Source of the DNA: a virus
Taxonomy: Duplodnaviria; Caudoviricetes
Strand: one strand, 5' to 3'
Virus record (IMG/VR): IMGVR_UViG_3300028592_000014
Coordinates: 1-54,406 of that record
Length of the DNA stretch: 54,406 nucleotides
Shown: positions 1-43,942 of the stretch, piece by piece
Position numbering within the stretch: the stretch's first letter is position 1
Layout: every line of letters begins with the position of its first letter
Program-made: the position numbers and the translations under genes
Notes under the pieces: model-generated
Told to the model about the DNA's origin: nothing
Database searches by the model: none
The model's input: the letters and a program-made list of their open reading frames with translations, nothing else

Positions 1-231
1 CACTCCTTGGCTCTCACTTGTGCAGCCACGAAGGTTACGTGCCTCATGATCTAGGAGTAACCCCAGGTTCTCGACCAGATCGCCACGAGACCTATGCGGA
101 GCACTATCCAGACGGCTACGAAATGGAGTTTGTGCCAGCCGATGAAGTGGATTCGCACGACGGATTGAATCTTGCATTCCAGCGCAACAAAGCCGCCGCC
201 CCCTCCCAATCAGATAGCGGGAGCAATCATG
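1..231 (+). repeat. Direct repeat copy 1 (partner 41189..41419)
   Basis: Manual alignment: 7 mismatches in 231 bp, perfect over 69..169; may extend left of the window. Confidence 0.97.
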
Positions 232-239
232 AAACTTAA
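1..239 (+). CDS. 5'-truncated hypothetical phage protein, near-identical to 41110..41424
   Basis: Same CSHEGYVPHDLG...YPDGYEMEFV translation. Confidence 0.85.
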   Translation, partial: LLGSHLCSHEGYVPHDLGVTPGSRPDRHETYAEHYPDGYEMEFVPADEVDSHDGLNLAFQRNKAAAPSQSDSGSNHET

Positions 240-429
240 AGCACTCCCCTCGATAAACCGGCCCTGCAAAGAGGCTGCGGTAACATTCGCGCTCGCATTA
301 ATGGATGATATTAAAAACCATGACAATAACGCAGATAACCAGGGCGGCGCTCTACCTCCGGAGCAGCAAAGACCGAAGCGACGTATCAATCGACGCACAG
401 CGGAGGCAGTTGCAGCAACTAGCATCTGA
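229..429 (+). CDS. 66-aa ORF overlapping the integrase start; possible recombination directionality factor
   Basis: GGGAG SD then ATG 229; position only. Confidence 0.4.
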   Translation: MKLKALPSINRPCKEAAVTFALALMDDIKNHDNNADNQGGALPPEQQRPKRRINRRTAEAVAATSI

Positions 430-1882
430 TCGCGGCTTTACCATCGTTGCCGAGTTCGCCGACGCGGTTGAATCCGGCAAAGACGAATTACGGGAAGGTT
501 TCCAAAAGTTACTTACTGCCATGCGCAACAAGCGGCGCGGGTGGGACACTCTCCTGATTCTCGACACATCGCGGCTTGCACGACGTCGGCATATCTCCCT
601 CGTCTTCGAAGAGGTCGAGGCTAAAAAGCATGGTGTACGGGTGGTGTACAAGTCCCTGCCTGACTCCGACCCGATTACCGAAATGCTTCTGAAATCCATT
701 CTTCAGGCAATGGACGAATGGCACAGTCTCACCAGCAAACAAAAGGGCTTGGCCGGAATGGCTGAGAACGTGCGGCAAGGCTGGCGTGCTGGCGGGCGGG
801 CGCCGATCGGCTACCAGCTCGAACACGTCGAGACAGGAGCAATGCGGGAAGGTGCGCCGGTACGCAAAAGCAAGCTGGTTCCGTCCGAAGACGCCGGCAT
901 GATGAAAACCTATCTGACGTTGCGAGCCAAGGGCGTGAACCGACCGAATGCGGCGGGTAAGGTAGGGCTGAAGGCATCGCCGAGCACCTTGGTCGGCATC
1001 GAGTGGAACGCCCTCACCTATGCCGGGCATACCGCTTGGAATGTCAGACATGAGCATGGACCGAGCGGGTATGCCGGAGGCGTCAAGCGGCGACCGCGCT
1101 CAGAATGGGTCATCCAGAAGAATACCCACGAGGCACTGATTACCGACGAGGAAGCCGAAATACTGCTGGTGCGGCTTGAATCGTTCGATCGTGGGCACCA
1201 CTCGCATGCCGACTACCTGCTGACCGGATTGCTGAAATGCCCCACAGGAAACAACTGGCGCGGCTCGGACGGTGGCGACGGCGGTTATTACCGGCTCGGG
1301 AAGGGGAAGCGGGTCAAAGCCAATACGGTGGAATCCGCGGTGCTCACCCAGGTTGTAGAGGACATGCGCACACCGGATTTCATCGAAGAACTGACGGCAG
1401 CGGCGCGCCAGCAGTTTGACGATCGACGCAAGGATGACGCCCTGCCAGCAATGAAAAGGGATGCCGCCGACCTGGAGCGCCGCATCAAACGGCTTACCGA
1501 AATGCTGTCAGACACCGCAAGGCCGGAACCGCTCCTGCGCCAGATCGAGGATTACGACGGGCAGCGCACGGCAATGCTGGTCGAGATCGAAAAGCGGGAA
1601 GAAGAAGCAAAGCAGGTTGCCAAAGTGAAAGCCTTAGCCGCGCCCCAAGTCGCGCGCATGCTAAACCTGATTGCTGAAGAATTCGATGAACTGGATAGGG
1701 AAAAACTTCGTGATCTTTTGAAAGGATTGGTTGAACAGGTCGTTTTAGACGACACTGCTCAAACTTTCCAGATCACTTACCGGTTAGCTGCTGCTACCGG
1801 TCTTAGAATGGCGTCCCCACGGAAAGACGAATCTATGACCGGGATTTTCACACATAAGCGGCGCATGCTGAAGCGAGCGTAG
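305..1882 (+). CDS. int: Large serine recombinase (integrase); start may be ATG 320
   Basis: YLRSS catalytic motif, ESG, DTSRLAR, G..P.GY recombinase domain, YLLTGLLKC zinc-ribbon-like segment, coiled coil. Confidence 0.95.
   Translation: MILKTMTITQITRAALYLRSSKDRSDVSIDAQRRQLQQLASDRGFTIVAEFADAVESGKDELREGFQKLLTAMRNKRRGWDTLLILDTSRLARRRHISLVFEEVEAKKHGVRVVYKSLPDSDPITEMLLKSILQAMDEWHSLTSKQKGLAGMAENVRQGWRAGGRAPIGYQLEHVETGAMREGAPVRKSKLVPSEDAGMMKTYLTLRAKGVNRPNAAGKVGLKASPSTLVGIEWNALTYAGHTAWNVRHEHGPSGYAGGVKRRPRSEWVIQKNTHEALITDEEAEILLVRLESFDRGHHSHADYLLTGLLKCPTGNNWRGSDGGDGGYYRLGKGKRVKANTVESAVLTQVVEDMRTPDFIEELTAAARQQFDDRRKDDALPAMKRDAADLERRIKRLTEMLSDTARPEPLLRQIEDYDGQRTAMLVEIEKREEEAKQVAKVKALAAPQVARMLNLIAEEFDELDREKLRDLLKGLVEQVVLDDTAQTFQITYRLAAATGLRMASPRKDESMTGIFTHKRRMLKRA
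1797..1842. other. attP of the serine integrase (tRNA-Glu-targeting), inside int
   Basis: CCGGTCTTAGA...TCTATGACCGG imperfect inverted repeat, 22+2+22 bp centred on AC 1819-1820; 1809..1822 is the reverse complement of CCGTGGGGACGCCA, a tRNA-Glu-type 3' end. Confidence 0.8.
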
Positions 1883-1900
1883 AATTCTATCACTACCAAA

Positions 1901-2134
1901 ATGGAGCGAAAAATGACCGAAGACCAAGCCAACCGAATAACCGCCCTCGCAATTGATGTCGAGAGAAAGCGGAATAGGTACGAATTGTTGGCGGGAAGAA
2001 ACGCCGCCAATATGAACAGGGAGGAGCGAGAAAGGGCGACGGCAGCCTACCATCTCACACATGCTGAATATATTGAGGCAGAAGCATTGCTGATGAGCGC
2101 AAAGCTATCGGTTATCGACGCCCCTGCCGTCTGA
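1901..2134 (+). CDS. Hypothetical protein
   Basis: 77-aa helical ORF filling the gap; true start may be ATG 1913 behind GGAG. Confidence 0.6.
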   Translation: MERKMTEDQANRITALAIDVERKRNRYELLAGRNAANMNREERERATAAYHLTHAEYIEAEALLMSAKLSVIDAPAV

Positions 2135-2558
2135 ATTCCCAAGGCGGCACCGGCTCAGCATCAGCCCACAGACCGCGCCGCCCTTCCCTTGCTTGATCCT
2201 GCAGTGCTGACAACGCCCGGTCCTTATTGTATTTCTTGTACACCCAGGCAAAGCCGCGCTCGACCTGGGCGCGGTTCACGTCGACGCCGTTGCAGGTGAC
2301 AACCGCCACAGTTCGCCCGTATCGGTCGACATCCTGAACGCGGTAATCAGCATCCTTTTTCCAGCAGAGGTCAGACAGGGATTGCTTTGAGCGCTGGCCG
2401 AACGCCTGGGCTTTCTCCGGTGCATCAATGTTGGCAAGCCGGACCTTCAGCGGCTTTTGGTCGACCAGGAGAGTAAGGGTATCGCCGTCGGCAATCCCGA
2501 TGACTTGGTGAGCTTGAGCAGGGATTGCGATGGTTAGGGCGAGGAGGAAATATTTCAT
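2112..2558 (-). CDS. Thermonuclease (SNase-family) with signal peptide
   Basis: DGDT, VRLANIDAPE, DRYGRTVA, GLWA..PPWEFR motifs; hydrophobic N-terminus ending AQA. Confidence 0.93.
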   Translation of the reverse strand: MKYFLLALTIAIPAQAHQVIGIADGDTLTLLVDQKPLKVRLANIDAPEKAQAFGQRSKQSLSDLCWKKDADYRVQDVDRYGRTVAVVTCNGVDVNRAQVERGFAWVYKKYNKDRALSALQDQAREGRRGLWADAEPVPPWEFRRQGRR

Positions 2559-2567
2559 GCGGGGATT

Positions 2568-2819
2568 TTACTTCGGCCAAGCCTCCACAGTTCGCGCATG
2601 ACGGATTTTGCAATCAGCGTATGCTGGCAGAACCTCGTCAATGATCCAATCCAGCCAAGCGTCATAATCCGCCGTTTCAGGGTTTTCTAGCGTTCGACAC
2701 GGTGCCGACAGTCCCGAGTCCAGCGGCGGCTTTGTTGGTGGCGTCAACAGCGGCGGCGAGGCTGCGCACGCGGACAGTATCAGGGCGGCAATCAGGAGGG
2801 AGAGGCTTTGCGTTCGCAT
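2568..2819 (-). CDS. Rz1: o-spanin lipoprotein (Rz1-like)
   Basis: LSAC lipobox, Pro-rich, overlaps Rz. Confidence 0.85.
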   Translation of the reverse strand: MRTQSLSLLIAALILSACAASPPLLTPPTKPPLDSGLSAPCRTLENPETADYDAWLDWIIDEVLPAYADCKIRHARTVEAWPK

Positions 2820-3099
2820 TTTTCAGATCCTTTTTAATATCGGCGAGCTGAGTATTCACAGCGAAGAATTCAATCCCCGCGCCGTCGGCAGCATCCTTGA
2901 TCTTCTTCGCGGCTTCGGCCAGGTCGGTGAGCGCGGCTTGTGCCTGGTCTGCGCGATCGCTTGCCCGATCAGCCTTGATACTCGAAATCTCGGCATCGAG
3001 TCGCCAGCCGTTTGCAGTCCAACCACTACCGAAGCCGATAGCCACAGCGAGCGCGCCGCCGACGAGCAGCGCCAGCGGGTTGAGTGTCAGCGGACTCAT
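2677..3099 (-). CDS. Rz: i-spanin (Rz-like)
   Basis: N-terminal TM, GWRL, coiled coil, follows endolysin. Confidence 0.85.
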   Translation of the reverse strand: MSPLTLNPLALLVGGALAVAIGFGSGWTANGWRLDAEISSIKADRASDRADQAQAALTDLAEAAKKIKDAADGAGIEFFAVNTQLADIKKDLKNANAKPLPPDCRPDTVRVRSLAAAVDATNKAAAGLGTVGTVSNARKP

Positions 3100-3593
3100 G
3101 ACTCACCCCGCGCCGCGCTATCGGCGGCAGTCCAGTTTGCCGCCCAAGTCTGGGGATGTGGCTTTCCCGGACGCCATGCGCTGATGTACTGCTGCCAGCC
3201 TTGATCGGCAGTAACCGGGAGCGATGACGGCAAGGTATAGATCAGCAGCCGCGCCGCTGTAGCCGCCACGATGTCTTGATAGCGCATCGCTTCCCACAAT
3301 CCGGCGTCGGTCGGCACCACGTTGTAGTCGGCGCATACCCGCTTCATGTGGTTTGTGGTGCTGCGATTGGTCAGCACCTCACGACAACCTCCAGCGCGCT
3401 CGAACTGCCAGAACGATGATGCAGGGCCGGATTCAGTCCCGCCGACAACCTGACGTCGATGCCGCAGTCCGGATTCCTGCAGCGCGATGGCCAGGAGAAA
3501 ACGCCGCGCCTCGAACGAATCCTTGATACCCGATCCGGCTAGATCAGCCAGCGCCGGCACAATCGCTGTCTTGAGTAAGCGTAGAGGCGTCAT
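3096..3593 (-). CDS. Putative endolysin (lysozyme/transglycosylase-like)
   Basis: ALQES and FWQFE motifs; between holin and spanins. Confidence 0.75.
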   Translation of the reverse strand: MTPLRLLKTAIVPALADLAGSGIKDSFEARRFLLAIALQESGLRHRRQVVGGTESGPASSFWQFERAGGCREVLTNRSTTNHMKRVCADYNVVPTDAGLWEAMRYQDIVAATAARLLIYTLPSSLPVTADQGWQQYISAWRPGKPHPQTWAANWTAADSAARGES

Positions 3594-3940
3594 GACTTGC
3601 CCTCCTCGTCCGAGTTCTTACCGCTGTCCGAGCGCGGAAACTTCGTCTCAAAGAACCCTTCGAGCTGGAACAGTGCGCGGCTTCCCATATGACCGGCTAT
3701 GCCGACGAATGCAGCGGTAGCCAACGGCGCGAACCCCGACCACTCGCACAGGTAGAACGTCAGCACGCCGGCGAAAGCGGACGTGAATAGCTCTCCGAAC
3801 AATTCGGCTACGTTGAATGCCCGCGCATGCCCATCCTTGACCTTTCGGATAAACGACACGGCGCCGCCCAAGGCAGACAGGCCGAACACCCACAGGTAAG
3901 TCAGGACCGAGTAGGTTTCTGGTGATTTTTCTGGCGGCAT
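3590..3940 (-). CDS. Holin (LydA-like, 3 TM)
   Basis: MPPEKSPE start, three hydrophobic helices, GHMGSRAL, charged tail. Confidence 0.85.
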   Translation of the reverse strand: MPPEKSPETYSVLTYLWVFGLSALGGAVSFIRKVKDGHARAFNVAELFGELFTSAFAGVLTFYLCEWSGFAPLATAAFVGIAGHMGSRALFQLEGFFETKFPRSDSGKNSDEEGKS

Positions 3941-3955
3941 CTTCACTCCCATAAA

Positions 3956-3977
3956 GAAAAACCCGCTCGCGGCGGGT
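3956..3977 (-). terminator. Intrinsic terminator upstream of the lysis cassette
   Basis: ACCCGC/GCGGGT stem followed by T-run on the minus strand. Confidence 0.8.
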
Positions 3978-4008
3978 GTGTTGTTCTGACTTGTATAATG
4001 CGAAGACT

Positions 4009-4095
4009 ATGCGCGAATACGGAATCGATCCCATACAGCTCGGCGCGGTCATCGCTGGCATCGTGACCGCGTGGCTCAACTCACGGAAAAAGTAG
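4009..4095 (+). CDS. 28-aa membrane micropeptide MREYGIDPIQLGAVIAGIVTAWLNSRKK (not in ORF track)
   Basis: TATAAT at 3994-3999, ORF fills the intergenic gap, single hydrophobic helix plus basic tail. Confidence 0.6.
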   Translation: MREYGIDPIQLGAVIAGIVTAWLNSRKK

Positions 4096-6264
4096 CCCTC
4101 TTTGCTCCCGCTCGTCTGGCTGCATGAATGCTGCTGGCGACATCAACAGGCCAGCCGGCGGCCTTGGCCCAAGCGGGATTTGAGACAGAAGCCCGCGCGG
4201 GACATCCATTGCCCTGTTTGCCTGCATCCCCACCGATATGTTTTGCGCTGGTCCAGAGATGTAGTTCCCAAAGGGTATCTTGCTCAACAGGGGGCTATTT
4301 GCGATCCGATCAAGCACCCCGGTAAGCGCCGCCGTGGTGTTTGAGTTGTTCACCGCCGAGCCGCGCGGCTGGAACTGCTCATAGCTGGCAACACGTCCGA
4401 TTGCTTTCAATTGCTGAATTTCCTGCGGATCGAACAGCAGCTCCAATTTTTGGTCGCCGATGCGCCTCAGGGCCTTATTAAGCGCCGACTGGCTAATGTT
4501 GGCCGCTTCGTCGGCAGCCCCATTAACTGCCTCGGACTTCAGATAACCAAGTACTTCCGACCTAATGGAATTACGCACGCCCTGGTTGTTACCAACAACA
4601 TCAAGCGTCGCCCGCAAGTCGCGCACGTTGGCATTCAGCACATGCTTTTGAAAGAACGCATCCGGCGCAGCGTCATCGATCGCGGCAGCCAAAGAGGGGG
4701 TTCTCTCGACCTGCTGCATGAAGCTGCGATTCGCCCCGCGCGCGGCGTTGAATGCGTCGATTGCCTCTTGGCCGATGTTCGGCCGTAGCTCTGCGGAGAC
4801 GCCGCCGGCCGGCTTGAGTTGAAACCCACCGTTGACGGCCGCAGGCGGTACGGCCGTATCTGCAATCAGCGGAGCATTATCCAGCGCCTGACGAATGAAC
4901 CCGAGCGCAGCACGCGCATTGCCATCGGTAGCGCCGCGCTGCGCATTGCCGATGATGGTTTTGAACTGCTCTGCAGTGTGGACATTCAACGGCACCCTGC
5001 CCGAGGCGAAATCGTTCATCATCGTGCGAATATTGTCCGGCACAAACGCACCTTTCAGATTGAAGTCGAGCAGGTTATTCGCCGTCGTGGAGAAGGCTTG
5101 CGGATCGAGCCTTGCGGCCCTTCCCTGTGAATCCTTGGCCGCGTTATAGAGGTTCGTGATTTCGCCCTGCTGCCGGGTGGCGTAACCGCCAAGCGTGTCG
5201 CGCAGCGTCTGGCCGGTCGCATATTGCCCTTGTGCTTGACCCGCGCCCAAGTCATTCAACCCGGAAATCAGTTGCCGATTGTTGGCATTCTCAACCTGGG
5301 CCAACTGCTGCGCTGCCGCATCCTTGCTGTTGGCGCCGATCTTCGCCAGATTCTTTTCTTGGGTGAGAGTTACCGGGTCAAGCGTCAGCGTACCGACGCG
5401 CGGCGTTGCGCCGGTCAGACGGTAATCGGCAAGTCTGCGGATTGCATCAGGAGACAGAACGCCATCCGAGCGCATTGCTTGCTGCACGTCGGTACGGATG
5501 CTGTTGCGAACATTGGCCGGCAGATCGGCAAACGACACGCCGCTATCTCTCAGCGCGTTATTGATCGTGACATCGACCTGCACATTTTGCGGCGCGACAC
5601 GATTGCGGAAAGCGTTTGCTGCGCTGGTGCCGACCTGCTGCACCTTGCTCAATGCCATAGGCGCGGTAATGCCAGCGGCGAGGGATGCGGCGAGCTGAGA
5701 ACCGTCATTGCCGCCAGTTTCGCGGGTGTAACCGCCGGCACCACCGGCAGCGGCTGCAGATGTCAACTGCGAACCAGGATTGCTTGCCAGTCCCTGAAGC
5801 GTCGCCTTCGTGACTCCCTCCGCACCCTGCGCCAGTCTCCCGGCGCCAGCAACCGGGACCATCGATCCAGCCATCAATCGCGCAGCATCGCCGACGACGC
5901 GCTCCGTCGAGTTCTGTGGAGTCGGCAGCCCGATCTTGTCTGCGGCATATTTGCCGATACCCGGCTTGATAGCCATCGAGTCAGGCAAGACGGCATTCAG
6001 GCCGGCACGAATCGGACTTGAGACAAACTCAAGTGCATCGCCGACGCCCTCGACAGCATGCCGCGCAGTCAATCCGACCTGACGCGGAATGTCCGCAATC
6101 TCGCGGTTCACGCGCTGGCCGAATGGTTCCTCCGGCTTTGGCGCTGCCTGCTGGCTGCCGAGTTGCGATTGCAGCATCTGGAACGCCTGCTCTTTGGTTG
6201 AGCCGTCCGGTCCGGTAACGCTGTATGTCTTGCCTTCCGGCGAAGTGAATTCGAAAGTGGGCAT
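4081..6264 (-). CDS. Internal virion / DNA ejection protein
   Basis: 727 aa, Ala/Gln/Gly-rich, last of three large genes after the tail genes, as in podoviruses. Confidence 0.7.
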   Translation of the reverse strand: MPTFEFTSPEGKTYSVTGPDGSTKEQAFQMLQSQLGSQQAAPKPEEPFGQRVNREIADIPRQVGLTARHAVEGVGDALEFVSSPIRAGLNAVLPDSMAIKPGIGKYAADKIGLPTPQNSTERVVGDAARLMAGSMVPVAGAGRLAQGAEGVTKATLQGLASNPGSQLTSAAAAGGAGGYTRETGGNDGSQLAASLAAGITAPMALSKVQQVGTSAANAFRNRVAPQNVQVDVTINNALRDSGVSFADLPANVRNSIRTDVQQAMRSDGVLSPDAIRRLADYRLTGATPRVGTLTLDPVTLTQEKNLAKIGANSKDAAAQQLAQVENANNRQLISGLNDLGAGQAQGQYATGQTLRDTLGGYATRQQGEITNLYNAAKDSQGRAARLDPQAFSTTANNLLDFNLKGAFVPDNIRTMMNDFASGRVPLNVHTAEQFKTIIGNAQRGATDGNARAALGFIRQALDNAPLIADTAVPPAAVNGGFQLKPAGGVSAELRPNIGQEAIDAFNAARGANRSFMQQVERTPSLAAAIDDAAPDAFFQKHVLNANVRDLRATLDVVGNNQGVRNSIRSEVLGYLKSEAVNGAADEAANISQSALNKALRRIGDQKLELLFDPQEIQQLKAIGRVASYEQFQPRGSAVNNSNTTAALTGVLDRIANSPLLSKIPFGNYISGPAQNISVGMQANRAMDVPRGLLSQIPLGPRPPAGLLMSPAAFMQPDEREQRGLLFP

Positions 6265-7619
6265 TAAGGCTTCTCCGTTACGGTCCAGCCATTGGGTAGA
6301 TTGTTAGCAGCCGGCGGCGGGGCGATGCGCGAGCCTCCAGGGACGCCAGCCAAGGTTCCGTGGATCGCAGTTTGGCGATTTCGGCGCTTCTGCTCGATGA
6401 CCGCATCCGAGTCGCCCGGTTGTGGGAAGTATTGCTTATCCCCGTTAGCAAATTCAGCCGGCGAAATGACAGCGCCTGATTCTTTACGCAAGGCGGCATT
6501 AAGAAAGTTGCGCTTTGCCTGCTCGACCTTTTGTTGATTCGCCGATTGCGTCCAGTTGGTGGCGGTTCCGAAAACATCGGATAGTGTCCCACCCAGGCTT
6601 TCCGTCCCGAGTCCAAGCACGCGCCCGGCTCCCTCCGCGAAAGATTTGATGTTCCCGGATCGAAGAACACCTTGATCTTCTAGTGTGCTCAAGGTTTTGT
6701 CAGCCTCCTGCATGCGCGTACCAAACAGATTGTCTTTCGACTGCGCCTCTGTCAGCGGCTTGTCCGTCCTTGGAAGTGGGGCGCCGCCGGGACCAACACC
6801 GGGCGCATATTGCCCTGTCCTTGGATTGAAGGTGAACGGCTGGCCGTCTACCGTGACATGCTGGACGCGATCAGCGTTTTGCTGCGCCCTTTCCGCGTTC
6901 TGCTTGGACAGGTTGTAATTTGCCCACCCCAAGCTGTTGGATGCAATCGAATCCGGGGATCGCGTGTGCTGAAGCGTTACGCCCGTTTGCCCTGTGTAGG
7001 GATTCACGCCGACCGTCTGGCCGTTCAGATTCTGGAAGTCCAGCTTGTCACGCGGCAGATTGTTATCAAGGCGCTTGATGGTGCCGTTCTTCCCCACAAG
7101 GTAGGTAAATGGCTGGCCGGTTGTCGGATCGACCCCAACCTGTGGACTTGTGCCGAATTCTTCCTGCTGCTTCGCTAAAGTCCGCTGCAGTTCCAGCCCC
7201 TTGAGCGGGTCAATCCCCATCAGGGAAGACACAAAGCCCTGCGTGTCAAAGCTGGGCTGCATGCCTGGAATCCTGTCTGCATTGGCCTGCGTTGGCCCCT
7301 GCCCGTTGCTCAATGCCATTTGTTCGGGTGTGCGCATCGCATCCCGCCCGGCCTGCCTGATTGCCTCTGTTTCGCCGATTTGCCGTTCCATTTCGCCCAA
7401 GCGCATGTTGTTCACTCTGCGCTGAAAGGCGCTGTCCTGCGCGTTCTGCATCCCCTGCACGCCAGCCAGCAGCCCGCCCCCAAGAATCTGCCCAAGCGAC
7501 GAGGGCCGCGTCGAGGGCCCCGAACGGTCGAGAATAGCCGCCGCTGCCGACAGCAAGCCCATGTTCTGCGGATCGGCAAAGCCACCGAGTAAGCCGCCTT
7601 GATAGTCGAGTTTTGCCAT
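6264..7619 (-). CDS. Internal virion / DNA ejection protein
   Basis: 451 aa, LRKESGAVIS..EF motif, synteny. Confidence 0.7.
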   Translation of the reverse strand: MAKLDYQGGLLGGFADPQNMGLLSAAAAILDRSGPSTRPSSLGQILGGGLLAGVQGMQNAQDSAFQRRVNNMRLGEMERQIGETEAIRQAGRDAMRTPEQMALSNGQGPTQANADRIPGMQPSFDTQGFVSSLMGIDPLKGLELQRTLAKQQEEFGTSPQVGVDPTTGQPFTYLVGKNGTIKRLDNNLPRDKLDFQNLNGQTVGVNPYTGQTGVTLQHTRSPDSIASNSLGWANYNLSKQNAERAQQNADRVQHVTVDGQPFTFNPRTGQYAPGVGPGGAPLPRTDKPLTEAQSKDNLFGTRMQEADKTLSTLEDQGVLRSGNIKSFAEGAGRVLGLGTESLGGTLSDVFGTATNWTQSANQQKVEQAKRNFLNAALRKESGAVISPAEFANGDKQYFPQPGDSDAVIEQKRRNRQTAIHGTLAGVPGGSRIAPPPAANNLPNGWTVTEKP

Positions 7620-7622
7620 GTC

Positions 7623-9389
7623 TTACCTCGTCGGTTGGTTAAATGCATTCCACAGCCCGAGCCCTGCCATCGCCCCGCCGAGCACGTTGCCCGTCTGGTT
7701 CTGGTAAAGCGGCTGGCTCTGCGTATTCGAGTTGTTCAGCCCCGTGTATTGGGACAACAAACCGCTTACATCCTTCAGGTTCCCCATCGAATACTGATCC
7801 TGTTGTTGCCCGATTCCATACGCTTGCCCCAGCAGCCCATTGGACAGACCTATGCCGGCAATCTGGTTCTGACTGTTGAGCCGGTTCGTATCAGCCTGCA
7901 GTTGCGCGTTCGTGATCGCGGTTTGATACTGCTGCCCGCCGAGCCCTGTCATCGCGGACAGTGCGCGGTTGCGGTCGGCGTCGTACGCACCGGCCTGTGC
8001 TGATACGGCCGCATCGGTGTTGTTCTGGCCGAACTGTGTCGCCGCCCTGGTCAAGTTGCTGGACAGGTCAGACAGTGCCCGGCCTTCCGCGATGCCCTGC
8101 CGGTTGCCTCCGAGGGTGTTGTTCATCACCGCGCCACCACGGATGTTCCCGAGAAGGTCCGTGGTCGCCTTCGTCGCATCCGTCATGTAGTTGCCGAATG
8201 CGTTCGTGGACTGGTTAATGCCCTTCTGGATCGCGCCTGTCAGATAGGGGTTTGCGCCGGCCTGACCGTAAATCATGTCCTGATAGGCAGGCGAGAGATT
8301 GAGATTGTTCTGACTCGGTGCGTTGACCTGGGGCGCGCTGATGTTGCTGCCCTGCAGCCCCTGCGCGGCCTGCTGATTTTTGCGGAACGTGTCCGGTCCC
8401 CAATCGTTCAGGTAGTCATCGATATTGGCGCCGAAGTTCGCCATACCCGGCGCTTGCTGCTTTCCGGACTGTGCCATGATCTGATTCAGGATTCCACCCT
8501 GCCCATAAACGTATGGGTCCATGCGCGGGTCCATCTTATTCTGACTTGTGGACGTGAGATTGTCCGGACCGCTGCTGCTGCCGCCGAGCAGGCCGCCAAG
8601 TAGGGCGCTGCCGCCCTTGCTGGTTGCGAAGTCGAGCGCCTTGCCCCACATGTCGCCGCCAGAGCCAAATAAACTATCCAAACCAAACATAGAACCTCCT
8701 GTTGTTCCAAGTCCTGCAGTTGTTGCGCCTGCCAATCCAGTGCCAAGCGCACCACCGCCGCCAGCCGTTCCCATAAGGGAGCCGACACCCGCCGTTGTCG
8801 CGCCATAGGTGCCGCTGCCCAAAGTGCCAAGGCCGCCCGCTGACGTTGCCCATGGCGCTGCTGTACCTGTTGCGGTCATGCCGCCAGCAGGAAGCGCGGC
8901 GAACCCTCCGGCGCCCTCTGCCGCCCCTGCCGCTGCTCCTGCGCCTGCACTACCTGCGCCCATAGCCGCAGCACCGCCAAACATCGCCATCAGCGCCGGC
9001 ACAACGACCGGCAATTTCCCGCCGATCTTGTCCGTCAGCCCATTGTGAAAAATGGACTGCTTTTGTGTCGTGCCGTCTTTCGATATTTCGGTGTAGTTCT
9101 GGCCGCTGCTGCCGGGGTTGTACATCCCGGTACTGCCGTTTCGGTTTTCAAACTGGTTGAAGGTCTGCCGCGTGGGGTCGAACTGAAAGCGGCCAGCGCC
9201 CGGAATGTCGTAGGTGCGGTAGGTAGTTTGGTTACTGTTGAGAAGGCCGCTTAGAGGTCCGTACTCATTGGCGCCGTAACCATATACGCCGCCTTGCGAC
9301 GATAAGCCGCCCTCGTCCGTGTAGAACCGATCTTCAAGCGACTTGTTGGAGCCAATGTAGTTCAGCAGATCGTCGTAACTCAGTGCCAT
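7623..9389 (-). CDS. Gly/Ala-rich internal virion (pilot/ejection) protein
   Basis: Composition, ANPYL motif, synteny. Confidence 0.65.
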   Translation of the reverse strand: MALSYDDLLNYIGSNKSLEDRFYTDEGGLSSQGGVYGYGANEYGPLSGLLNSNQTTYRTYDIPGAGRFQFDPTRQTFNQFENRNGSTGMYNPGSSGQNYTEISKDGTTQKQSIFHNGLTDKIGGKLPVVVPALMAMFGGAAAMGAGSAGAGAAAGAAEGAGGFAALPAGGMTATGTAAPWATSAGGLGTLGSGTYGATTAGVGSLMGTAGGGGALGTGLAGATTAGLGTTGGSMFGLDSLFGSGGDMWGKALDFATSKGGSALLGGLLGGSSSGPDNLTSTSQNKMDPRMDPYVYGQGGILNQIMAQSGKQQAPGMANFGANIDDYLNDWGPDTFRKNQQAAQGLQGSNISAPQVNAPSQNNLNLSPAYQDMIYGQAGANPYLTGAIQKGINQSTNAFGNYMTDATKATTDLLGNIRGGAVMNNTLGGNRQGIAEGRALSDLSSNLTRAATQFGQNNTDAAVSAQAGAYDADRNRALSAMTGLGGQQYQTAITNAQLQADTNRLNSQNQIAGIGLSNGLLGQAYGIGQQQDQYSMGNLKDVSGLLSQYTGLNNSNTQSQPLYQNQTGNVLGGAMAGLGLWNAFNQPTR

Positions 9390-9398
9390 GTCGATTCC

Positions 9399-32490: not shown

Positions 32491-32510
32491 GTTGCCCTCA
32501 TTTTGGCATG

Positions 32511-32563: not shown

Positions 32564-32604
32564 ATCCATCAAGACGCACCCAACACCAACCAGGAGGGCG
32601 ACAG

Positions 32605-34675: not shown

Positions 34676-34678
34676 ATC

Positions 34679-35553: not shown

Positions 35554-35565
35554 CCTGGAGAACTC

Positions 35566-36087
35566 ATGCTTGATTTACAAAACTGCATCCTCAAAATGTC
35601 CTCTGTGAACTTCCGCCAGGAGCTGCACGGCGAAGATCATGTGCGCGCCTGCGACCTCAAGTTCGAGGGTGTCGTGGGCAACGATGTGCTGATCGCCTTT
35701 CATCCTGAATTACGTTCGATGCTGTTCAAGAAGAACGATCAACCTGATCTAGTTGACCAAGCCGATCCAGAAGCATTAAGCGCCCTCCGCTTCCCGCGTC
35801 TCGGTACGCTGAAATATGACTGGGAAGGTACCGGCTACACGCTGACGATTGACCACGGCTTAGGCGACAAGAGCAACATCGTCTTAGGCGACTGCAAGCT
35901 GGACGGCATCCGCATCGACCCAATGCAAGGCGGCTCTGTGCGTCTCGCATTCCGCGTGATCTGTCACCCGGACGGCAAGCACGTTGATCCGCTGACCGAG
36001 AAACTTCAGAGCGATGTGGAAATTAGCGTCACGCCACCGGCACCCACCACCGTGCAAGAACTCTTCAACGAATCCAGCGCGGCATAA
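35566..36087 (+). CDS. Hypothetical phage protein
   Basis: GGAG SD; ELHGED, LRFP motifs. Confidence 0.75.
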   Translation: MLDLQNCILKMSSVNFRQELHGEDHVRACDLKFEGVVGNDVLIAFHPELRSMLFKKNDQPDLVDQADPEALSALRFPRLGTLKYDWEGTGYTLTIDHGLGDKSNIVLGDCKLDGIRIDPMQGGSVRLAFRVICHPDGKHVDPLTEKLQSDVEISVTPPAPTTVQELFNESSAA

Positions 36088-36164
36088 AGGCTTCCCTACC
36101 GGTCGGGGTTTTTTCATGTCGGCGGCCGCAACGTGACTGGGGCGGCAAGAATTCAGGAGACGTC

Positions 36165-36572
36165 ATGCCTACAGCAGAAAAAATAACAAGCGCAATTGAG
36201 AGAGAAGAATTCTCGCAGCGCCTGAAGCAAGCACTTCGGAACGCTGAATTCGATGAGGACAGCCCGACGCAGTTGCAGCGTCAATTCAACGCTCAATGGA
36301 ACGGGGACCGGATAACAGTTCATGCAGTCCGAAAATGGCTCGTGGGTGAAGCGATTCCTACACAGGAAAAATTGCGCGCACTGGCAAAGATGCTGGGCGT
36401 CTCTGCCGAATGGCTCCGATTCGGCGACACCGAAATGGCAGCAACAAAGCCCAATGGTGCGCTTCCCTCTGCAGATGTGCTGCTGTTCGACGCGTTTCGA
36501 CGGCTCGACGCAAAAACACAGCAGGCCGTCAGAGATTTTATCCGCACGATGGCTGTGGCGAGCAGGAGCTAA
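36165..36572 (+). CDS. Second XRE-family HTH regulator
   Basis: FSQRLKQAL, AVRKWL.GE.IP, LGVSAEWLRFG. Confidence 0.88.
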   Translation: MPTAEKITSAIEREEFSQRLKQALRNAEFDEDSPTQLQRQFNAQWNGDRITVHAVRKWLVGEAIPTQEKLRALAKMLGVSAEWLRFGDTEMAATKPNGALPSADVLLFDAFRRLDAKTQQAVRDFIRTMAVASRS

Positions 36573-36574
36573 AA

Positions 36575-37009
36575 GTGACCGACATCATCAAACCAAAGCG
36601 TCCAACTGGCCCAGGCTGGTGTCAAGTTCCAATGCCTCCGCAGTTCAACAACATGGGCTTTCCAGCGGCGTTCTGGTTCCATGCCGCGAATCTGCTTTCC
36701 GTCATCAGCGCGGTCGAAGTGGCGAATGATGGCGACGGCATCGACAAAGGCCCTGAATACCACATCAGCATCAGTAAGTCAGGCGCAAATGGCACCGAGC
36801 GCTGCACAAGCGCAGACGTGCTTTGGGTGCTTGCCCAATTCGAACTCGACGGTGCCGAAGAAGATAACCACGTTCCGAACGGGAAGGTACGCAATTTCTG
36901 GCGTCCGGTAGCGGATCGCCTCGTCGGTCTGGAGTGCGCTTGCAAGGATCAAGAGCCTGTCATGCGTGAAGAAAAGGGCGATTTCGTATGGCGCGGCATT
37001 TCAAAGTGA
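36575..37009 (+). CDS. Hypothetical protein
   Basis: AGGAG SD, GTG start; EYHISIS, EEDNH. Confidence 0.7.
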   Translation: MTDIIKPKRPTGPGWCQVPMPPQFNNMGFPAAFWFHAANLLSVISAVEVANDGDGIDKGPEYHISISKSGANGTERCTSADVLWVLAQFELDGAEEDNHVPNGKVRNFWRPVADRLVGLECACKDQEPVMREEKGDFVWRGISK

Positions 37010-37021
37010 ACAGGGCAAACA

Positions 37022-38290
37022 ATGACTGACAAACTCAACCGCGAAGAACTGATTGAACTGGCGAAGAATTTCAAATTGCCATACCCCGGCGCTATCAACT
37101 CAAACCTAGATACCGGCAATGTCGAGTTGTCGCCAGCGCATTTCAGAAATTATCTTGAATCTTATGCTCGCAATGCGCTTGTGGTGTTCTGCAAGTCCCT
37201 CTCCGCCCGTCAAGAGCAGGCAGAGCCGGGATGGAATGAGGCGATTGAGACTATCGCAACTTCGTTCGTACATTCGTTCCGAGAAGATGACCGGCTAGAC
37301 CCTGCTTATATCGCTGAATGCATTCTTTCGCACAAGCGTCCATCACAACCTCAAGAGCCTATTAAAGCATCTGCGAATGATCTCCAGCGCATTGAAGCAG
37401 AGCTACGCGAACAAGCGCACGAATATCGGCAAGCCGATGCATCGGTAGGAATGTTTGCTGATCCAGAGACGGCAGACATGTTTGATGAGTTCGCGGATCG
37501 CATTAAAGCCCTCTTCATCGCACAGCCAGCGGCACTCAATAATCCGGTGGAAGTTGAGTTCGCGAAGAAGGAAGCTATTGCGAACATCATCAAACAGATT
37601 TCCGAACTTCCAGAAAAGACGGGGCCACTTGGCTGTCCTGGTGCAATGCTCGTCACCGCCAATGAGTTACGCGACATTCTTGAAGATGTTCTTGTGCCAG
37701 TTGCGCAGCCAGCGGCACCTGAAGAACAATCGCGCATTGTGGCGTACCTGGAAAGAACTATGCGTTGCGGCGTTCCGGCAGTTGAGGCGGCGGCACGTAT
37801 CTGCTATGCCTTCTATGAAGGCGCAGAGATTTCCGAGCCAGCGGCACAGACGGTAGTGCCGGAAGGGTTAATTCAGGTTTCTGTAGAACGCATACAAAAT
37901 GCTGCCGCACATGCAAAACTTGCAGCCGACTGCATCGTTGGCATGGCAAAAGCAAAGCCGGGGAATATGTGCGGTTGGCTGGACGATGCCTGTACAAGTG
38001 CAGATATAGCGCATGACGTTTTGCGCAAGCTACTCGCTGACGCCGCTCCACAGCCAGTAGCGACACAGGCTGGCGAATTACTAGGGTGGGCGATTGGCCG
38101 GTGGACGGACGAAGTGGCAAACAGGCCGCTTATCAACGTGCACCGGCGTACATTGGACAGCACATGGCGACAAGTCATCAAGTACGCAGGCGGCGATGAC
38201 GTCTTGCTTATAGGGCCTCGGCACGATGATCTAGTGGCATCTGCCGCCGATCCCCAAGCCGCGCAAGCCAACAAGGACCAAAGCAAATGA
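37022..38290 (+). CDS. Mosaic multi-module early protein
   Basis: 422-aa ORF of short modules joined by AQPAA-like linkers. Confidence 0.7.
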   Translation: MTDKLNREELIELAKNFKLPYPGAINSNLDTGNVELSPAHFRNYLESYARNALVVFCKSLSARQEQAEPGWNEAIETIATSFVHSFREDDRLDPAYIAECILSHKRPSQPQEPIKASANDLQRIEAELREQAHEYRQADASVGMFADPETADMFDEFADRIKALFIAQPAALNNPVEVEFAKKEAIANIIKQISELPEKTGPLGCPGAMLVTANELRDILEDVLVPVAQPAAPEEQSRIVAYLERTMRCGVPAVEAAARICYAFYEGAEISEPAAQTVVPEGLIQVSVERIQNAAAHAKLAADCIVGMAKAKPGNMCGWLDDACTSADIAHDVLRKLLADAAPQPVATQAGELLGWAIGRWTDEVANRPLINVHRRTLDSTWRQVIKYAGGDDVLLIGPRHDDLVASAADPQAAQANKDQSK

Positions 38291-41113
38291 GCCAAGACAC
38301 AAAATGCGCAACATGTCAGCACATAGGTGCCATGTACCACACGGACGGGCTCTATTTCAATCATCTCTGTCGCAAATCGAGGGAGCGCCGCGAGGAATCC
38401 ATGCCAAGGAACGCCGATTTCTTTGACCATTTTCGCGCATTCTTCGACGCAAGAGCAGATCAGCGTGCATGCAAGCATTACATTGAGCGGCCAATTGCCG
38501 ATGATAAGACGATTGCACTTCTGCAAGGCATGGCCGCAAAGAACGGGCACGGTGAGTTTGGATTCTTCAGTGACGAAAACAGGCTCGCCGAAAAGCTCGA
38601 CGACAAGTTTATTCGCTGCGATATGCATGCGATAAGAGCGGCCCCCGGTAATCGCGTTTTCTATTTGCTGCCACTGGGCGAAGCAGAGGTAAAGCGAGTT
38701 GATACTGCCGCGCAAGCCAAGGGAGGCGAGTAATGGGCAAATTACTAGCAAGCTTCTTGCGGCTACCCATCGATGCGCAAGAACGGATGTTCGATCGCCT
38801 GATTGCAGCGCAAGATCGAGTGAGTGAACTCGAACGCCAGCTAGCCGCAGCTCAGACAACAGCACAGCAGGTAGATGAATGTGGTTTCGTCGCTGTTCGC
38901 CGCGATGCCATCGAGTGGCTGAAAATGCACTATCCGGCCTTGTGTGAAAAATCTGGATTGTGCGAGCGAATCGGAGGGAGGCTTTACACAATAACTCGTC
39001 TCTCCGCCCTGCAAGCTGGGAAGGAGCGGAGATGATTCCGACAGCCGAACAAGCGACGGTCTATCGCGGTGGCGGGCGGCGCTGGCTTACGAAGCGCGCA
39101 GCCTGTCGAGCCGAAGCAAGGGCCAAATTACGAAAACGGTGCGAGTGTGAACGCGGCGATCACATAACGCCACCCGTCACATGCTGGCACCACGACGAGC
39201 GCAATTACCAGCGGCTAGTGCGAAGACTCACAAGAATATACGAGAAAGCAATGCAATCCGCAAAGGAAGGTAAGTCATGACCAGCCACACCGATAACGCA
39301 GCGCTCGACGCATACGACGCGGGGCATCTCAACGACTTCGGGGGCGGAAACGTCGAATGGTGGCAGGACTATATCCGCGCAGAACTCGGACGTGCTCATG
39401 AGTTCTATCAATCGCAGGTAGATTCCATGATCGTCTCTCCCGCACCAGCGGAAGCGCCAGAGCTGACGGATGAGCAGATCATCGACAAGATGGAACGGGC
39501 CGGATTCATTCATGTACATGTGCTTGATGCAGTGAATAAGCACTTTGTTGGAACTGTGACTGATGTCCGCGCCCTGCTTCGCCGTCAGCCATCCAAAGAG
39601 CAGCCGAAGCTAACACACGACGAAGCATTACAGGAGCTTGTCGATATAGCCCAAGAAAACGATATGGGTTATGGGACGCAGCCGGTAGCCGGACAACCTG
39701 CGCCGGTAGCAGCGGTATCGGCAGATGTGCTGAAAGATAAAGATCGGTTGGACTGGCTCATTGAGGCTGGATTCCAGGTGTGGGAAACCAGAGACCAATA
39801 TTTTATCCACAGAGCATTCGACCATTATCCAATTTCCGATGGATATATGACTGCTCGTGAAGCCATAGATGCTTTCATGTTAAAGATGCCGATGTCGCCG
39901 CCAACATCAAACCCAAGCGGCTGCCGCTCCCCTATCGTGGATGACTGGTGGAACTTCTGTGGCGAAACGGACATGGGGCAGACAGCGCCTGTTCTATGCA
40001 CTGCATGCGGCGGTACGTTCGCTCGGAAGCCTACCGAGAACAAGCCATGACCAAGATACTCACATTTCTGATCGGCGGCACATGGGTGTTCCTGCAAGTG
40101 ATTCGCGAGCGATCTATTCAGTTGTGGAAGTGGGTTAAGCGGAGGGTGAAGGGATGAGAAATGATGAAAGATTCGCTCTCACCATTGGAATTTTGTTCGG
40201 CGCGGTTTTGATGGTCTTGTTTTTCCACATAACGACACACAACGTCTCGAAAGTTAATTGGTCTTGCACGAAGGTTAGCCAGCCACAGAAATTAGGTGAA
40301 GCGGTTGACTGTTTGCAATATACGAAGGATTACGGCCATGAATGACACCCCAAAAGACAAAGCAAAGCGTCACGGCGTTCCGGTTATTCCGCGTAGAGCG
40401 GAGTCAACGAAGCAAGCGCCACGAGACCCAAACCCCGTTGTTGCTGTTTGCGGTGAATGCGGTTTGGAAATCCGGCAAACGATGGGCTATTACTGCCCAA
40501 AAGCCAACTGTCCGACCGGTTTGGGAGGTCAATGACCATGACTGACACATCAATAGAGGCGCTGCGAGAAGCGGCGATAGCACTGTACAAGCCGCCGTTC
40601 AGATTCGATAGCGGTTATATCTTCGACGCTGAAAATCAGATGGTGGCCGACCAACACGAAACCAGCATTTGCCGGGTGCGCGGGTGGGGCCGCATCGGTT
40701 ACATGGGAAACGCTGAGGCGCTACAGAACAAGGTAGGCGAGCTAATCGCGGAGGCATTGACGAATCTTTGGAATGCCGCCCCTGCTGTCAGTCAGCAAGA
40801 GCCAATCGGGTACATCACTGAGGACGATCTTGCAGACCTGAAGAAAAGCGGCGTTTCGACCATATACGAAAAAAAGCAGAAAAGAACGTTCGGATGCCAA
40901 TGGACGCATTACGGGCTTTATCTCGCCCCACTACAGGCAGCACAGCCGGGATATGTGATGGTGCCGGTTGAGCTAACTGACGAAATGATTGAGGCCGGCA
41001 TGGAGGCGGACTGCGCCGGTCGCCCCAGCGTGGACGATGACCGTCACGTGCGGTCGATCTGGACCGCCATGATCAAAGCCGCTCCCGGGCAAGTCGATGG
41101 GGGCAAGGGATGA
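38287..41113 (+). CDS. Run of coupled small hypothetical early genes: 38287..38733, 38733..39035, 39032..39280, 39277..40050, 40047..40157, 40154..40345, 40338..40535, 40532..41113
   Basis: Successive start/stop overlaps (mostly ATGA/TAATG), most with SD sequences. Confidence 0.65.
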
Positions 41114-41424
41114 AGCCGAAAATCTACTGCTTTTCAGATACGCCAGACGGCGGCGACGGGATTGCCATTGCAATGGCTGAGGATGGAACAATCCTTGGCT
41201 CTCACTTGTGCAGCCACGAAGGTTACGTGCCTCATGATCTAGGAGTAACCCCGGGCTCTCGACCAGATCGCCACGAGACCTATGCGGAGCACTATCCAGA
41301 CGGCTACGAAATGGAGTTTGTGCCAGCCGATGAAGTGGATTCGCACGACGGATTGAAGCTTGCATTCGAGCGCAACAAAGCCGCCGCACCCTCCCAATCA
41401 GATAGCGGGGGCAATCATGGATGA
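41110..41424 (+). CDS. Hypothetical phage protein (gene shared by both phages)
   Basis: Full-length copy of the ORF truncated at the window start. Confidence 0.8.
   Translation: MKPKIYCFSDTPDGGDGIAIAMAEDGTILGSHLCSHEGYVPHDLGVTPGSRPDRHETYAEHYPDGYEMEFVPADEVDSHDGLKLAFERNKAAAPSQSDSGGNHG
41189..41419 (+). repeat. Direct repeat copy 2 (partner 1..231)
   Basis: 224/231 identity by manual alignment. Confidence 0.97.
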
Positions 41425-41761
41425 TCATGAAATGCTGATGTGGGCGGCAAAGGCAGTGGGATACGACACTTCACACCATTGGAATGTGTCGCGCATGGAC
41501 CTCGATCCGCCCATTATTGATCTTTGCATTCCCGGCGTATCGACTGCCTGGAATCCACTCATACACGAAGGTGAACGCTACCGTTTAGCGCGGGACTTGC
41601 GCATGAGTATCGATTTCGATGATTGCTACGTGTGTAAGAGGTTTCCTGACCATACCCTGATTCAAGAGTTCTGGGGCGGTGAATGCGGCGATGAGGCGCA
41701 TGCTGTTCTTCGCGTCGCCGCTGAAATCGGTCGCAGGATGGATAGCGGGAGCAAGGGATGA
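41417..41761 (+). CDS. Hypothetical phage protein
   Basis: L..AAKAVG, WNPL, RVAAEIG motifs. Confidence 0.7.
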   Translation: MDDHEMLMWAAKAVGYDTSHHWNVSRMDLDPPIIDLCIPGVSTAWNPLIHEGERYRLARDLRMSIDFDDCYVCKRFPDHTLIQEFWGGECGDEAHAVLRVAAEIGRRMDSGSKG

Positions 41762-42432: not shown

Positions 42433-42780
42433 ATGATGCTAACCGCCGAACAAGCAGCGAAGGAACTGGGAATCAGCAAACGCATGATGTACGGACTCGC
42501 AGCGCCGCATGGCCCGGTTCCATGTGTTCGGTACGGTCCAAAGTGTGTTCGTTTCAGAGAGGAAGACGTCGAGGCATATAAAGAATCATGTCAACATACT
42601 ACGATAAGGATAGAAAGCGTTGGATCTTCGACTTTGACAAGGTCATTAAAGGACACCGGGTCAGAGCTACGAAGACTCTTCCAGAAGGCTGGAATCGAGC
42701 CAAAGCAGAAGCCTACGCAAAAGCCGAAACAGACCGCCTCTACGCCATTGCCACCGGCGCGGCTGAAGAACGTGTCCTGA
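42433..42780 (+). CDS. xis: Excisionase (MerR-like HTH), overlapping int
   Basis: LTAEQAAKELGIS..MMY, VRF...DV..Y; AGGAG SD. Confidence 0.85.
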   Translation: MMLTAEQAAKELGISKRMMYGLAAPHGPVPCVRYGPKCVRFREEDVEAYKESCQHTTIRIESVGSSTLTRSLKDTGSELRRLFQKAGIEPKQKPTQKPKQTASTPLPPARLKNVS

Positions 42781-43637
42781 TCAGCACCGCTGTGGCGCTA
42801 TACATCAAGGAAGTTTGTCCGCGCCTAAAGAACGGGGACGGGGTTATTGCTGAATTGGCCCGCATCCATTGGGCATATGACGGCAGGTTCATGGATGAAC
42901 TGGCGGAAGTTGCGAAGGAGTACAAGGATGGTGCTGTGCGCGAATTGAAAGACGAAAATGGCAACATGAAGGCTGTCCCGCTTTCCCCGGCCAGCATCAG
43001 GAACAAGCTGTCTTACCTACGCGCCGCCTGCCGGTACGCCCAGAAGGAACACCGGCTCGCAAAAACTGCGGACCTAAATGTTTCCATGCCAATTGTCAAA
43101 AATGAGCGTCATCATTACGCCAGTCGGAAGGAAATGCTTCAGATTGCCCGGGCGATGACGAATCGCCGCGCACGCGCCGCACTTCGAGTCGCTTTCTACT
43201 CCGGGATGAGGCTGGGCGAGATTGTTGCAGTCAAGGTTGTTGACGATGCGTTTCTACTGGAAGACACGAAGAATGGGGAGCGACGGATGGTTCCGATCCA
43301 TCCTCGCATAAGGGTTTGCCTGCGATATTTCCCACTTGCAATTCCTAAGATCACCGTACAGCGCCAGTTCAGCAATAAATCGCGGGCGCTTGGGCTGGGG
43401 CATTATCATTTCCATGACATGCGCCATAGCGCGGCCAGTCACATGATTAATGGTGGCGTTGACCTGTACACTGTGGGGGGCGTTTTGGGGCATAAGGATT
43501 CGCGCAGTACAGCGCGTTACAGCCACCTTGCTATTGAATCGCTGGCGGCAGCCGTGGCAAAAATCGGAACGGCTGGCAAAAAATCCCCAGCACCAAAAGA
43601 AAAGGCCGCAGAAGAGCGGCCTTTGAAAGACATCTAA
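42588..43637 (+). CDS. int: Tyrosine integrase
   Basis: SGMRLGE, TKNG, FHDMRHS, LGH, RYSH. Confidence 0.96.
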   Translation: MSTYYDKDRKRWIFDFDKVIKGHRVRATKTLPEGWNRAKAEAYAKAETDRLYAIATGAAEERVLISTAVALYIKEVCPRLKNGDGVIAELARIHWAYDGRFMDELAEVAKEYKDGAVRELKDENGNMKAVPLSPASIRNKLSYLRAACRYAQKEHRLAKTADLNVSMPIVKNERHHYASRKEMLQIARAMTNRRARAALRVAFYSGMRLGEIVAVKVVDDAFLLEDTKNGERRMVPIHPRIRVCLRYFPLAIPKITVQRQFSNKSRALGLGHYHFHDMRHSAASHMINGGVDLYTVGGVLGHKDSRSTARYSHLAIESLAAAVAKIGTAGKKSPAPKEKAAEERPLKDI

Positions 43638-43650
43638 GTGCTTGTATACT

Positions 43651-43711
43651 TGGCGGAAAGGGAGGGATTCGAACCCTCGATACGCATAAACGTATACTGG
43701 ATTTCGAGTCC
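43651..43711 (-). other. attP core: 3' half of tRNA-Ser(CGA), not a complete tRNA
   Basis: GGA-CTCGAAA-TCCAG anticodon arm, long variable arm, GGTTCGAATCC, CCA end; 5' half absent. Confidence 0.9.
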
Positions 43712-43759
43712 GATTCGCTCCCGACGCATAGCCCGCAAACCCGCATGGATAAAGGACTA

Positions 43760-43775
43760 CTGGTTGCGCATACAG
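43760..43775. promoter_or_regulatory. LexA (SOS) box
   Basis: CTGTATGCGCAACCAG on the minus strand fits CTG-N10-CAG with the CTGTAT half-site. Confidence 0.7.
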
Positions 43776-43942
43776 TGCATGCAATTACCCAAAAAACGTA
43801 TCGCGTGGCAAAAAATCCCCAGCACCATATCGAGCAATTTTATAGATAAGAGTAATGATATAAAACATGCAAAACAAATCGCCACGCCCTTCTGCGCGGG
43901 TGGCAATCACTTAGCTGTTTTGATCCATGAAAAGGGAGTGTT

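Follow-up and report, generated by a model that had tools for sequence, protein, structure and literature searches.

Two temperate phages meeting in a shared mosaic gene in a 54,406-bp IMG/VR record: a probable assembly chimera

The IMG/VR record IMGVR_UViG_3300028592_000014, a contig of 54,406 bp from a virus of the Caudoviricetes that is classed as 'linear' and was analysed over its entire length (hereafter referred to as the window, position 1 being the contig end), contains the sequences of two temperate phages, X and Y, which meet in a gene common to both (gene g). The two are probably separate phages that carry the same mosaic gene and were threaded together by one assembler, and the join most likely has no counterpart in nature. 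A first-pass annotation of the window had recognised two temperate phages with integrases of different classes (serine, 305-1882; tyrosine, 42588-43637) and one common gene, and had presented a real phage-phage cointegrate and an assembly chimera of two circles as alternatives between which the sequence alone could not decide; both the anatomy and this framing are upheld by the present analysis. Its more specific proposal, that phage X lies inside phage Y as the result of a crossover in the shared gene, is unsupported, since the proteins of X and Y are found on separate contigs elsewhere, Y occurs without X in two sequencing runs and the contig starts within the repeat that marks the junction.

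According to the proposed mechanism, X would be a circular unit of about 41.2 kb and Y a different temperate phage of the same soil sample, the two carrying near-identical alleles of g as a normal mosaic module with its right edge exactly on a gene start. An assembler starting in one g allele would go once round the X circle, re-enter g and exit via the other allele into Y. The contig opens inside the repeat, which is the pattern expected from an assembler at a fork.

Transfer RNAs were searched for with ARAGORN, RNA families with Rfam and protein families with Pfam and PHROG profiles. Proteins were looked up as exact-sequence matches in a collection of 15 billion proteins. The evidence from sequencing runs consists of Logan contigs of four runs (X1 to X4), 35-58% of each run being covered. 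Depth is available as one value per contig, gaps in the coverage carry no evidential weight, and the stretches 41804-43131 and 44460-51099, which are uncovered in X1 (about 35% of this run covered), were not counted as evidence.

Gene g and the junction between the phages

The direct repeat reported in the first-pass annotation is real. Positions 1-231 (copy A, + strand) and 41189-41419 (copy B, + strand) are 97% identical at a start-to-start spacing of 41,188; they differ at seven repeat columns (3, 65, 68, 170, 180, 200 and 222), share a longest perfect run of 101 nt at columns 69-169 and are unrelated beyond column 231. Copy B is held in the last 236 nt of gene g (41110..41424, + strand), which encodes a protein of 104 amino acids belonging to phrog_24023 (E 2.9e-30), a family with no function assigned; this copy spans the 3' three-quarters of g and is continuous with early DNA of X to the left and with DNA of Y to the right. 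Copy A is the 3' part of another g allele, cut by the contig start, and continues into the serine integrase region. The contig begins 2 nt before the first mismatch between the copies (column 3). Since the window is the whole record, the left boundary of the repeat is the contig end rather than a biological boundary, and 231 bp is therefore the minimum length of the repeat.

The right boundary lies at the ATG of the next gene, as had been claimed: positions 231 and 41419 are the G of an ATG, which in copy B (41417) starts a gene of family phrog_5086. The PHROG match for this family begins at residue 20 of a TTG-start open reading frame (ORF) at 41360-41761. Thus, a segment of high identity with an unrelated flank ends at a gene border, the mark of a mosaic module, as judged on the right flank alone. 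Gene g has probably been exchanged recently between X and Y, with the joint exactly on the gene boundary.

Homologues of g with 66-73% amino-acid identity were found at 12 IMG/VR contigs or loci in varied contexts. The serine integrase adjoins g at none of the 12 loci, and phrog_5086 is directly downstream at none. Among 29 relatives of the serine integrase, neither g nor the X portal was found (0 of 29 for each). Neither adjacency of g is conserved, and this is uninformative on whether the join is real. The g query had no match in five genomes of Noviherbaspirillum, the plausible host genus, or in the 301 genomes of their family; an exact-pattern scan for the g core returned nothing from viral_contigs or metagenome_contigs, as did a Y-specific 30-mer from just right of the junction, and no near-identical DNA was present in the phage collection for 29000-41500 or 41100-54406.

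Within the window, the junction motif GATAGCGGGRGCAATCATG is found at the two repeat copies only, and a 14-nt partial copy of it lies at 41741-41754. Fourteen nucleotides from the end of g (GATAGCGGGAGCAA, in the form found in copy A) recur at the end of the phrog_5086 gene (41741-41761), followed there by the GCAAGGGATGA stop/start overlap that also precedes g (41097-41113); these two sequences may represent a recurring gene junction in these phages, or chance. In copy A, the ATG at the repeat end opens a 66-codon ORF (229-426, + strand) overlapping the annotated start of the serine integrase, which the source annotation gives as 490 amino acids from a later non-ATG start. This ORF may be genuine and might encode, for instance, a directionality factor.

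Separate occurrence of X and Y in other assemblies and runs

X and Y are found apart in other public assemblies. Another public contig, 41,313 bp long (41,188 + 125), encodes proteins identical to the integrase, the portal and the replication protein of X; the integrase there has the sequence of the window, the notation of the non-ATG start codon being the sole difference between the entries. The phrog_5086 and ATP-grasp proteins of Y likewise have identical counterparts on a different contig, of 12,599 bp, compared with 12,987 bp for the Y arm of the window. In the collection of 15 billion proteins, full-length g forms a cluster of one, from this contig only. The join is not reproduced in other public assemblies, in which X-length and Y-arm contigs are separate; at least one of them keeps X and Y apart and lacks an intact g.

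Eight sequencing runs hold parts of the stretch 36500-46499. Run X1 holds 0.99 of its sampled words and may be the source run; run X2 holds 0.46, the Y part making up 0.51 of the stretch, and run X3 contains pieces of both X and Y. Every exact piece listed for X2 or X4 falls within Y, between 41413/41415 and about 53,070, those of X2 within 41415-53067. The first Y piece on the left coincides in its start (41413-41415) with the right edge of the repeat in both cases. Over 35828-41139 the depth is 0 in X4 and 0-2.6 in X2, the latter from contigs mostly of lower identity. The confinement of the X2 and X4 pieces to Y and their common left end indicate that Y exists without adjoining X DNA and that the border between g and phrog_5086 is a fork in these runs, too.

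One contig of run X1, 262 nt long, is an exact match to 41096-41357 and has a depth of 61.3. This piece ends on the right immediately before the column 170 mismatch at 41358 and begins on the left directly after 41095, the last position that differs from a third phage resembling L015. The depth and the end points together indicate that g is a collapsed node common to at least two to three co-resident genomes, at which assemblies fork. Among the listed pieces there is none that spans 41189-41419 together with both flanks, the one from X1 stopping at 41357. A molecule linking X to Y is probably absent from the source sample. Exact X pieces just upstream of g have depths of 32.1 and 33.3, and exact Y pieces 20.2, 9.9, 9.2 and 8.3; the coverage comparison suggested in the first-pass annotation, made here with partial and weak data, thus gives 32-33 for X against 8-20 for Y rather than equal abundance.

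The contig L015 (IMGVR_UViG_3300038441_000471, 6689-6785), which comes from another sample, is a mosaic relative of the X early region. It ends 56 nt into g, and those 56 nt are identical to the window. Contigs of the L015 type are present in run X1 at a depth of 14-17.

Gene content, attachment sites and hosts of the two phages

The 41,188-bp unit (232-41188 plus g) is a complete temperate phage with a lambda-like layout and a serine integrase. Read round the circle, the early operon with g as its last gene is followed by the serine integrase and then by the terminal part of the late operon. The integrase, a large serine recombinase (305..1882, + strand), matches the Pfam family Resolvase (PF00239, E 2.8e-20, residues 14-159) and phrog_95 (E 2.5e-55, residues 6-487); against the Pfam family Recombinase (PF07508) it scores 19.6 bits, under the cut-off of 21.1. 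A leftward block (2112..29755, - strand) encodes a SNase-like nuclease, an Rz-like spanin, tail-fibre-like and virion proteins, and the head, packaging and replication genes, among them the major head protein (phrog_1328, E 1.8e-101), the portal (phrog_1216, E 6e-128), a scaffold, the large and small terminases, a DnaB-like helicase and a replication protein. A rightward early operon (29891..41113, + strand) leads up to g, which ends at 41424, and includes a helix-turn-helix repressor-like gene (30385-30792, + strand). The RecT and YqaJ genes attributed to X in the first-pass annotation are indeed present in this operon, namely RecT at 33356-34675 (+ strand; phrog_148, E 1.1e-58) and a YqaJ/RecE-like exonuclease at 34679-35332 (+ strand; phrog_149, E 1.5e-30). 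The description of X as a 'full podovirus gene set' holds as to completeness, with terminases, portal, scaffold, head, replication and repressor genes all in place; the podovirus identity is unproven, and it is fitted by the absence of a tape measure among the 20 late-region X proteins scanned.

The attachment site predicted for X fared less well. Both inverted arms had been ascribed to a serine phage attachment site (attP), and the best dyad in 232-304 and 1883-2112 is 12/24, which is chance level: scores of at least 12/24 occur at 0.9% of all window positions, and several are expected among the approximately 600 centres tested. The supposed tRNA-Glu target was not recovered either: Rfam scans detected no tRNA-like fragment at E<=5 within 1-2700, nor at E<=0.5 in the rest of the window, and a BLAST search of 232-2120 against the five Noviherbaspirillum genomes gave chance-level matches only. 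X plausibly infects Noviherbaspirillum, the weak indication being an X-like contig binned in a metagenome-assembled genome (MAG) of this genus. Within the X terminase region, 25704-25767 (- strand) shows weak similarity to the Betaproteobacteria toxic small RNA family of Rfam (RF02278; E 0.025; 30.9 bits, the gathering score being 50); if real, this sub-threshold match would fit a betaproteobacterial host. In three of the 29 serine integrase relatives in IMG/VR (L017, L028 and L037), a homologue of the Y tail-region family phrog_6278 occurs 4-5 kb downstream from the integrase gene, encoded on the other strand, and the X type of serine integrase appears from these loci to be found in phages with Y-like tails as well.

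Positions 41420-54406 are a 13-kb (12,987-bp) arm of the second temperate phage, Y, and no resemblance between X and Y proteins was found outside g. Y is a temperate phage, probably long-tailed, with a layout as in X, namely g, phrog_5086, tyrosine integrase, attP, accessory genes and tail genes. The phrog_5086 gene (41417..41761, + strand; E 1.1e-13) is the first Y-specific gene, and a minus-strand gene of 162 amino acids lies between it and the tyrosine integrase (42588..43637, + strand; PF00589, E 5.6e-17; phrog_1, E 1.6e-38). Relatives of this integrase were absent from viral_contigs, and genome_contigs gave only partial matches at 24-41%.

The core of the Y attP (43651..43711, - strand), 14 nt downstream of the integrase, is identical to the last 61 nt of tRNA-Ser(CGA), the part running from the anticodon loop to the 3' terminus. 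It is flanked by a left arm-type repeat inside the 3' end of the integrase gene (43558..43595, + strand) and by its right partner (43790..43827, + strand), which form a 38-nt direct repeat with 87% identity and 21 nt exact. The earlier claims of arm repeats on both sides of a tyrosine attP and of a tRNA-Ser target for Y are thus confirmed, the core being the last 61 nt of the tRNA-Ser(CGA) of Noviherbaspirillum, and since arm repeats are present on both sides of the core the Y attP is unrecombined. A 52-nt pattern from the core is found exactly at seven places among the GTDB species genomes, all of them in Noviherbaspirillum and inside 90-nt tRNA-Ser(cga) genes; in BLAST searches the core is 100% identical over 61-64 nt at five of these seven loci. 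Y plausibly infects Noviherbaspirillum, judging from this core. On the opposite (+) strand, an Rfam family matches the stretch of the core at 52.6 bits. The window contains, as had been noted, no complete tRNA (ARAGORN) and no host gene, and it has no Rfam family at its gathering score. In all four runs, 43651-43684 shows depths of 650-1500 and many different loose ends on both sides, which is the look of a universally conserved tRNA end. Genes with PHROG matches are present on both sides of the Y attP.

The accessory region of Y (44264..49765, + strand), comparable to the b region of lambda, encodes a Lar-like protein, a DUF3268 zinc-finger protein and an ATP-grasp_ST enzyme, and contains a spanin-like gene on the other strand (48199-48729, - strand). 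It is followed by the end of the late operon (49839..54406, - strand), with genes for a TPR protein, phrog_2618, a 326-amino-acid protein, phrog_6278 and a tape-measure-like C-terminus. The ATP-grasp_ST enzyme (47043-48197, + strand; PF14397, E 1.4e-33) and the TPR protein (49839-51194, - strand) lie between the attP and the tail genes, a position usually occupied by accessory cargo. The 'two virion types' of the first-pass annotation depend on the Y side on a single weak match, that of the last ORF (53662-54405, - strand), which is cut by the contig end, to the C-terminus of a tape-measure family (E 1.1e-7). In the relative L013, the phrog_6278 gene adjoins a tail-fibre gene; a PDB sequence search with phrog_6278 gave no meaningful match.

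Competing explanations and relation to known systems

Relatives of X by portal number 70 loci, and some of their records bear on the size of the unit and on its joining to other phage DNA. The record G334 is 40,626 bp long, is rated 100% complete by CheckV and has ends that repeat over 137 nt at 99.3%; its completeness at this length shows that a 41.2-kb unit is a normal full genome in the group. The record G332 (IMGVR_UViG_3300049207_000026, loci L133-L136), 74,109 bp long and also rated 100% complete, is made up of two X-like units that differ in sequence; they follow one another at a period of about 40.85 kb and match each other at 75-96% identity. Its positions 39797-74108 (34.3 kb) are 99.94% identical to G334, which is from another sample, and this identity stops sharply about 30 nt past a gene start. 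The record G333 (IMGVR_UViG_3300049200_000031, loci L140-L142) is 49,794 bp long, one unit plus about 8.4 kb, with only a patchy match of 88-98% between 1-8817 and 41395-49794. Over-length contigs of mixed origin thus recur in this phage group. CheckV rates G333 66% complete beside the 74-kb G332 and the window 69% complete, the latter implying an expected genome of about 79 kb; the ratings of G333 and G332 suggest that the 69% rests on an over-length reference, too.

Several considerations weigh against an assembly chimera. The evidence comes from Logan contigs and not from raw reads, and the g alleles are not phased with their left flanks. The contigs of 41,313 and 12,599 bp are known by their protein matches and may come from another sample, and the excess of 125 bases is a possible circular overlap. 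The Y arm has several strain variants, which makes the difference in depth between X and Y weak evidence. With a perfect core of 101 nt, one 150-nt read could phase columns 68 and 170, and the path could be genuinely supported if the assembler worked with read pairs or a large k. The RecT and the exonuclease of X could, moreover, make such a crossover.

One alternative is a real X-Y cointegrate, formed by homologous recombination in g within one host, possibly via the RecT and exonuclease encoded by X, which is rather unlikely. The product, equally unlikely, would read Y-left, gA, X, gB, Y-right and keep both attP intact, be it a transient replication intermediate or a stable composite, and the assembled contig has exactly this expected topology. 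The depth of g in run X1 is about twice that of X-left, as two g copies per molecule would give; a shared host genus is plausible from the Y attP core and the X-like contig in the MAG, G332 and G333 also join non-identical units, and the phasable core means that the path of the assembler may be supported. However, other assemblies place X on a contig close to one unit in length and the arm of Y on a second contig, with no intact g; Y is present without X in runs X2 and X4, and in X1, the probable source run, the exact Y pieces fall well below the depth of X. The Y early DNA expected to the left of copy A is absent from the record, the contig starting there, and X plus a whole Y would amount to about twice the 41-kb unit and, going by general headful and cos limits, would be unpackageable in the X head. 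It is improbable that the contig is a real hetero-cointegrate of a podovirus-like and a long-tailed Noviherbaspirillum phage; if it were one, G332 and G333 would be further natural heterodimers.

Two other explanations remain improbable even when taken jointly. A single phage of more than 54 kb with two paralogous copies of g and two integrases, its contig broken at the repeat, would agree with the genome of about 79 kb implied by CheckV and with the frequent breaking of contigs at internal repeats. This explanation is very improbable, as the 41,188-bp unit alone has a full gene set and the size of the complete relative G334, the tape-measure-like gene of the Y arm is not needed by the X gene set, the X proteins are found on a 41,313-bp contig elsewhere, and the CheckV estimate may rest on over-length relatives, G333 at 66% beside G332 being the case in point. 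In tandem lambda lysogens a complete attP forms again between one unit and the next, and an intact attP alone therefore does not exclude tandem prophages in a host chromosome with the second phage integrated into the first. Such an arrangement is scarcely credible here, with X/Y junctions in a protein-coding gene and not at an att site, integrases of different classes, neither a host gene nor a complete tRNA in the window, and PHROG-matching genes on both sides of the Y attP.

If the join is an artefact of assembly, the record is to be read as two genomes, a complete X of 41.2 kb and a 13-kb fragment of Y; the CheckV value of 69% is then misleading, and over-length mixed contigs can feed back into the references used for completeness. 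X and Y are two new temperate phages of known kinds, probably infecting Noviherbaspirillum, and Y has a clean tRNA-Ser(CGA) attP. If the join were real, the window would be a rare natural case of two virion types, two integrase classes and two intact attP on one replicon.

Y resembles phages with lambda-type integration at the 3' ends of tRNA genes in that its tyrosine integrase is transcribed towards the adjacent attP, the core of which is the last 61 nt of the host tRNA-Ser(CGA) with arm-type repeats on both sides; it differs in that no attL, attR or lysogen was found for Y and no close relative of the integrase was present in IMG/VR or the GTDB species genomes. The sharing of g resembles the mosaic exchange of the lambdoid phages, in which a near-identical segment occurs in otherwise unrelated genomes; here the right edge of the segment is on the ATG of the next gene, and g has the same map position in X and Y, as the last or nearly last early gene upstream of the integrase. 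In contrast to the textbook case, the left edge of the g segment lies at or beyond the contig start, and phrog_24023 is without an assigned function.

The records G332 and G333 belong to the same podovirus-like group (portals 62-64% identical) and, like the window, show a full unit followed by non-identical phage DNA with a period of about 41 kb. Their units are homologous over the whole length at 75-96%, whereas the second partner in the window is a different kind of phage. A passage in the CheckV paper (PMC8116208) names chimeras of closely related viruses as an artefact that the program does not yet detect, and the cases termed 'concatemer' in the same source differ from the window in that the same genome is repeated there. 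Compared with the chimeric and over-length viral contigs of metagenomes treated by Roux et al. 2017 (PMC5610896) and in the CheckV paper (PMC8116208), the partners in the window are unusual in sharing one small gene only (97% identical, with a core of 101 nt) and being otherwise unrelated. The window is like those contigs in that the record exceeds one genome unit, the join lies in a stretch common to co-resident genomes, the contig ends in the repeat and another assembly splits at the same place.

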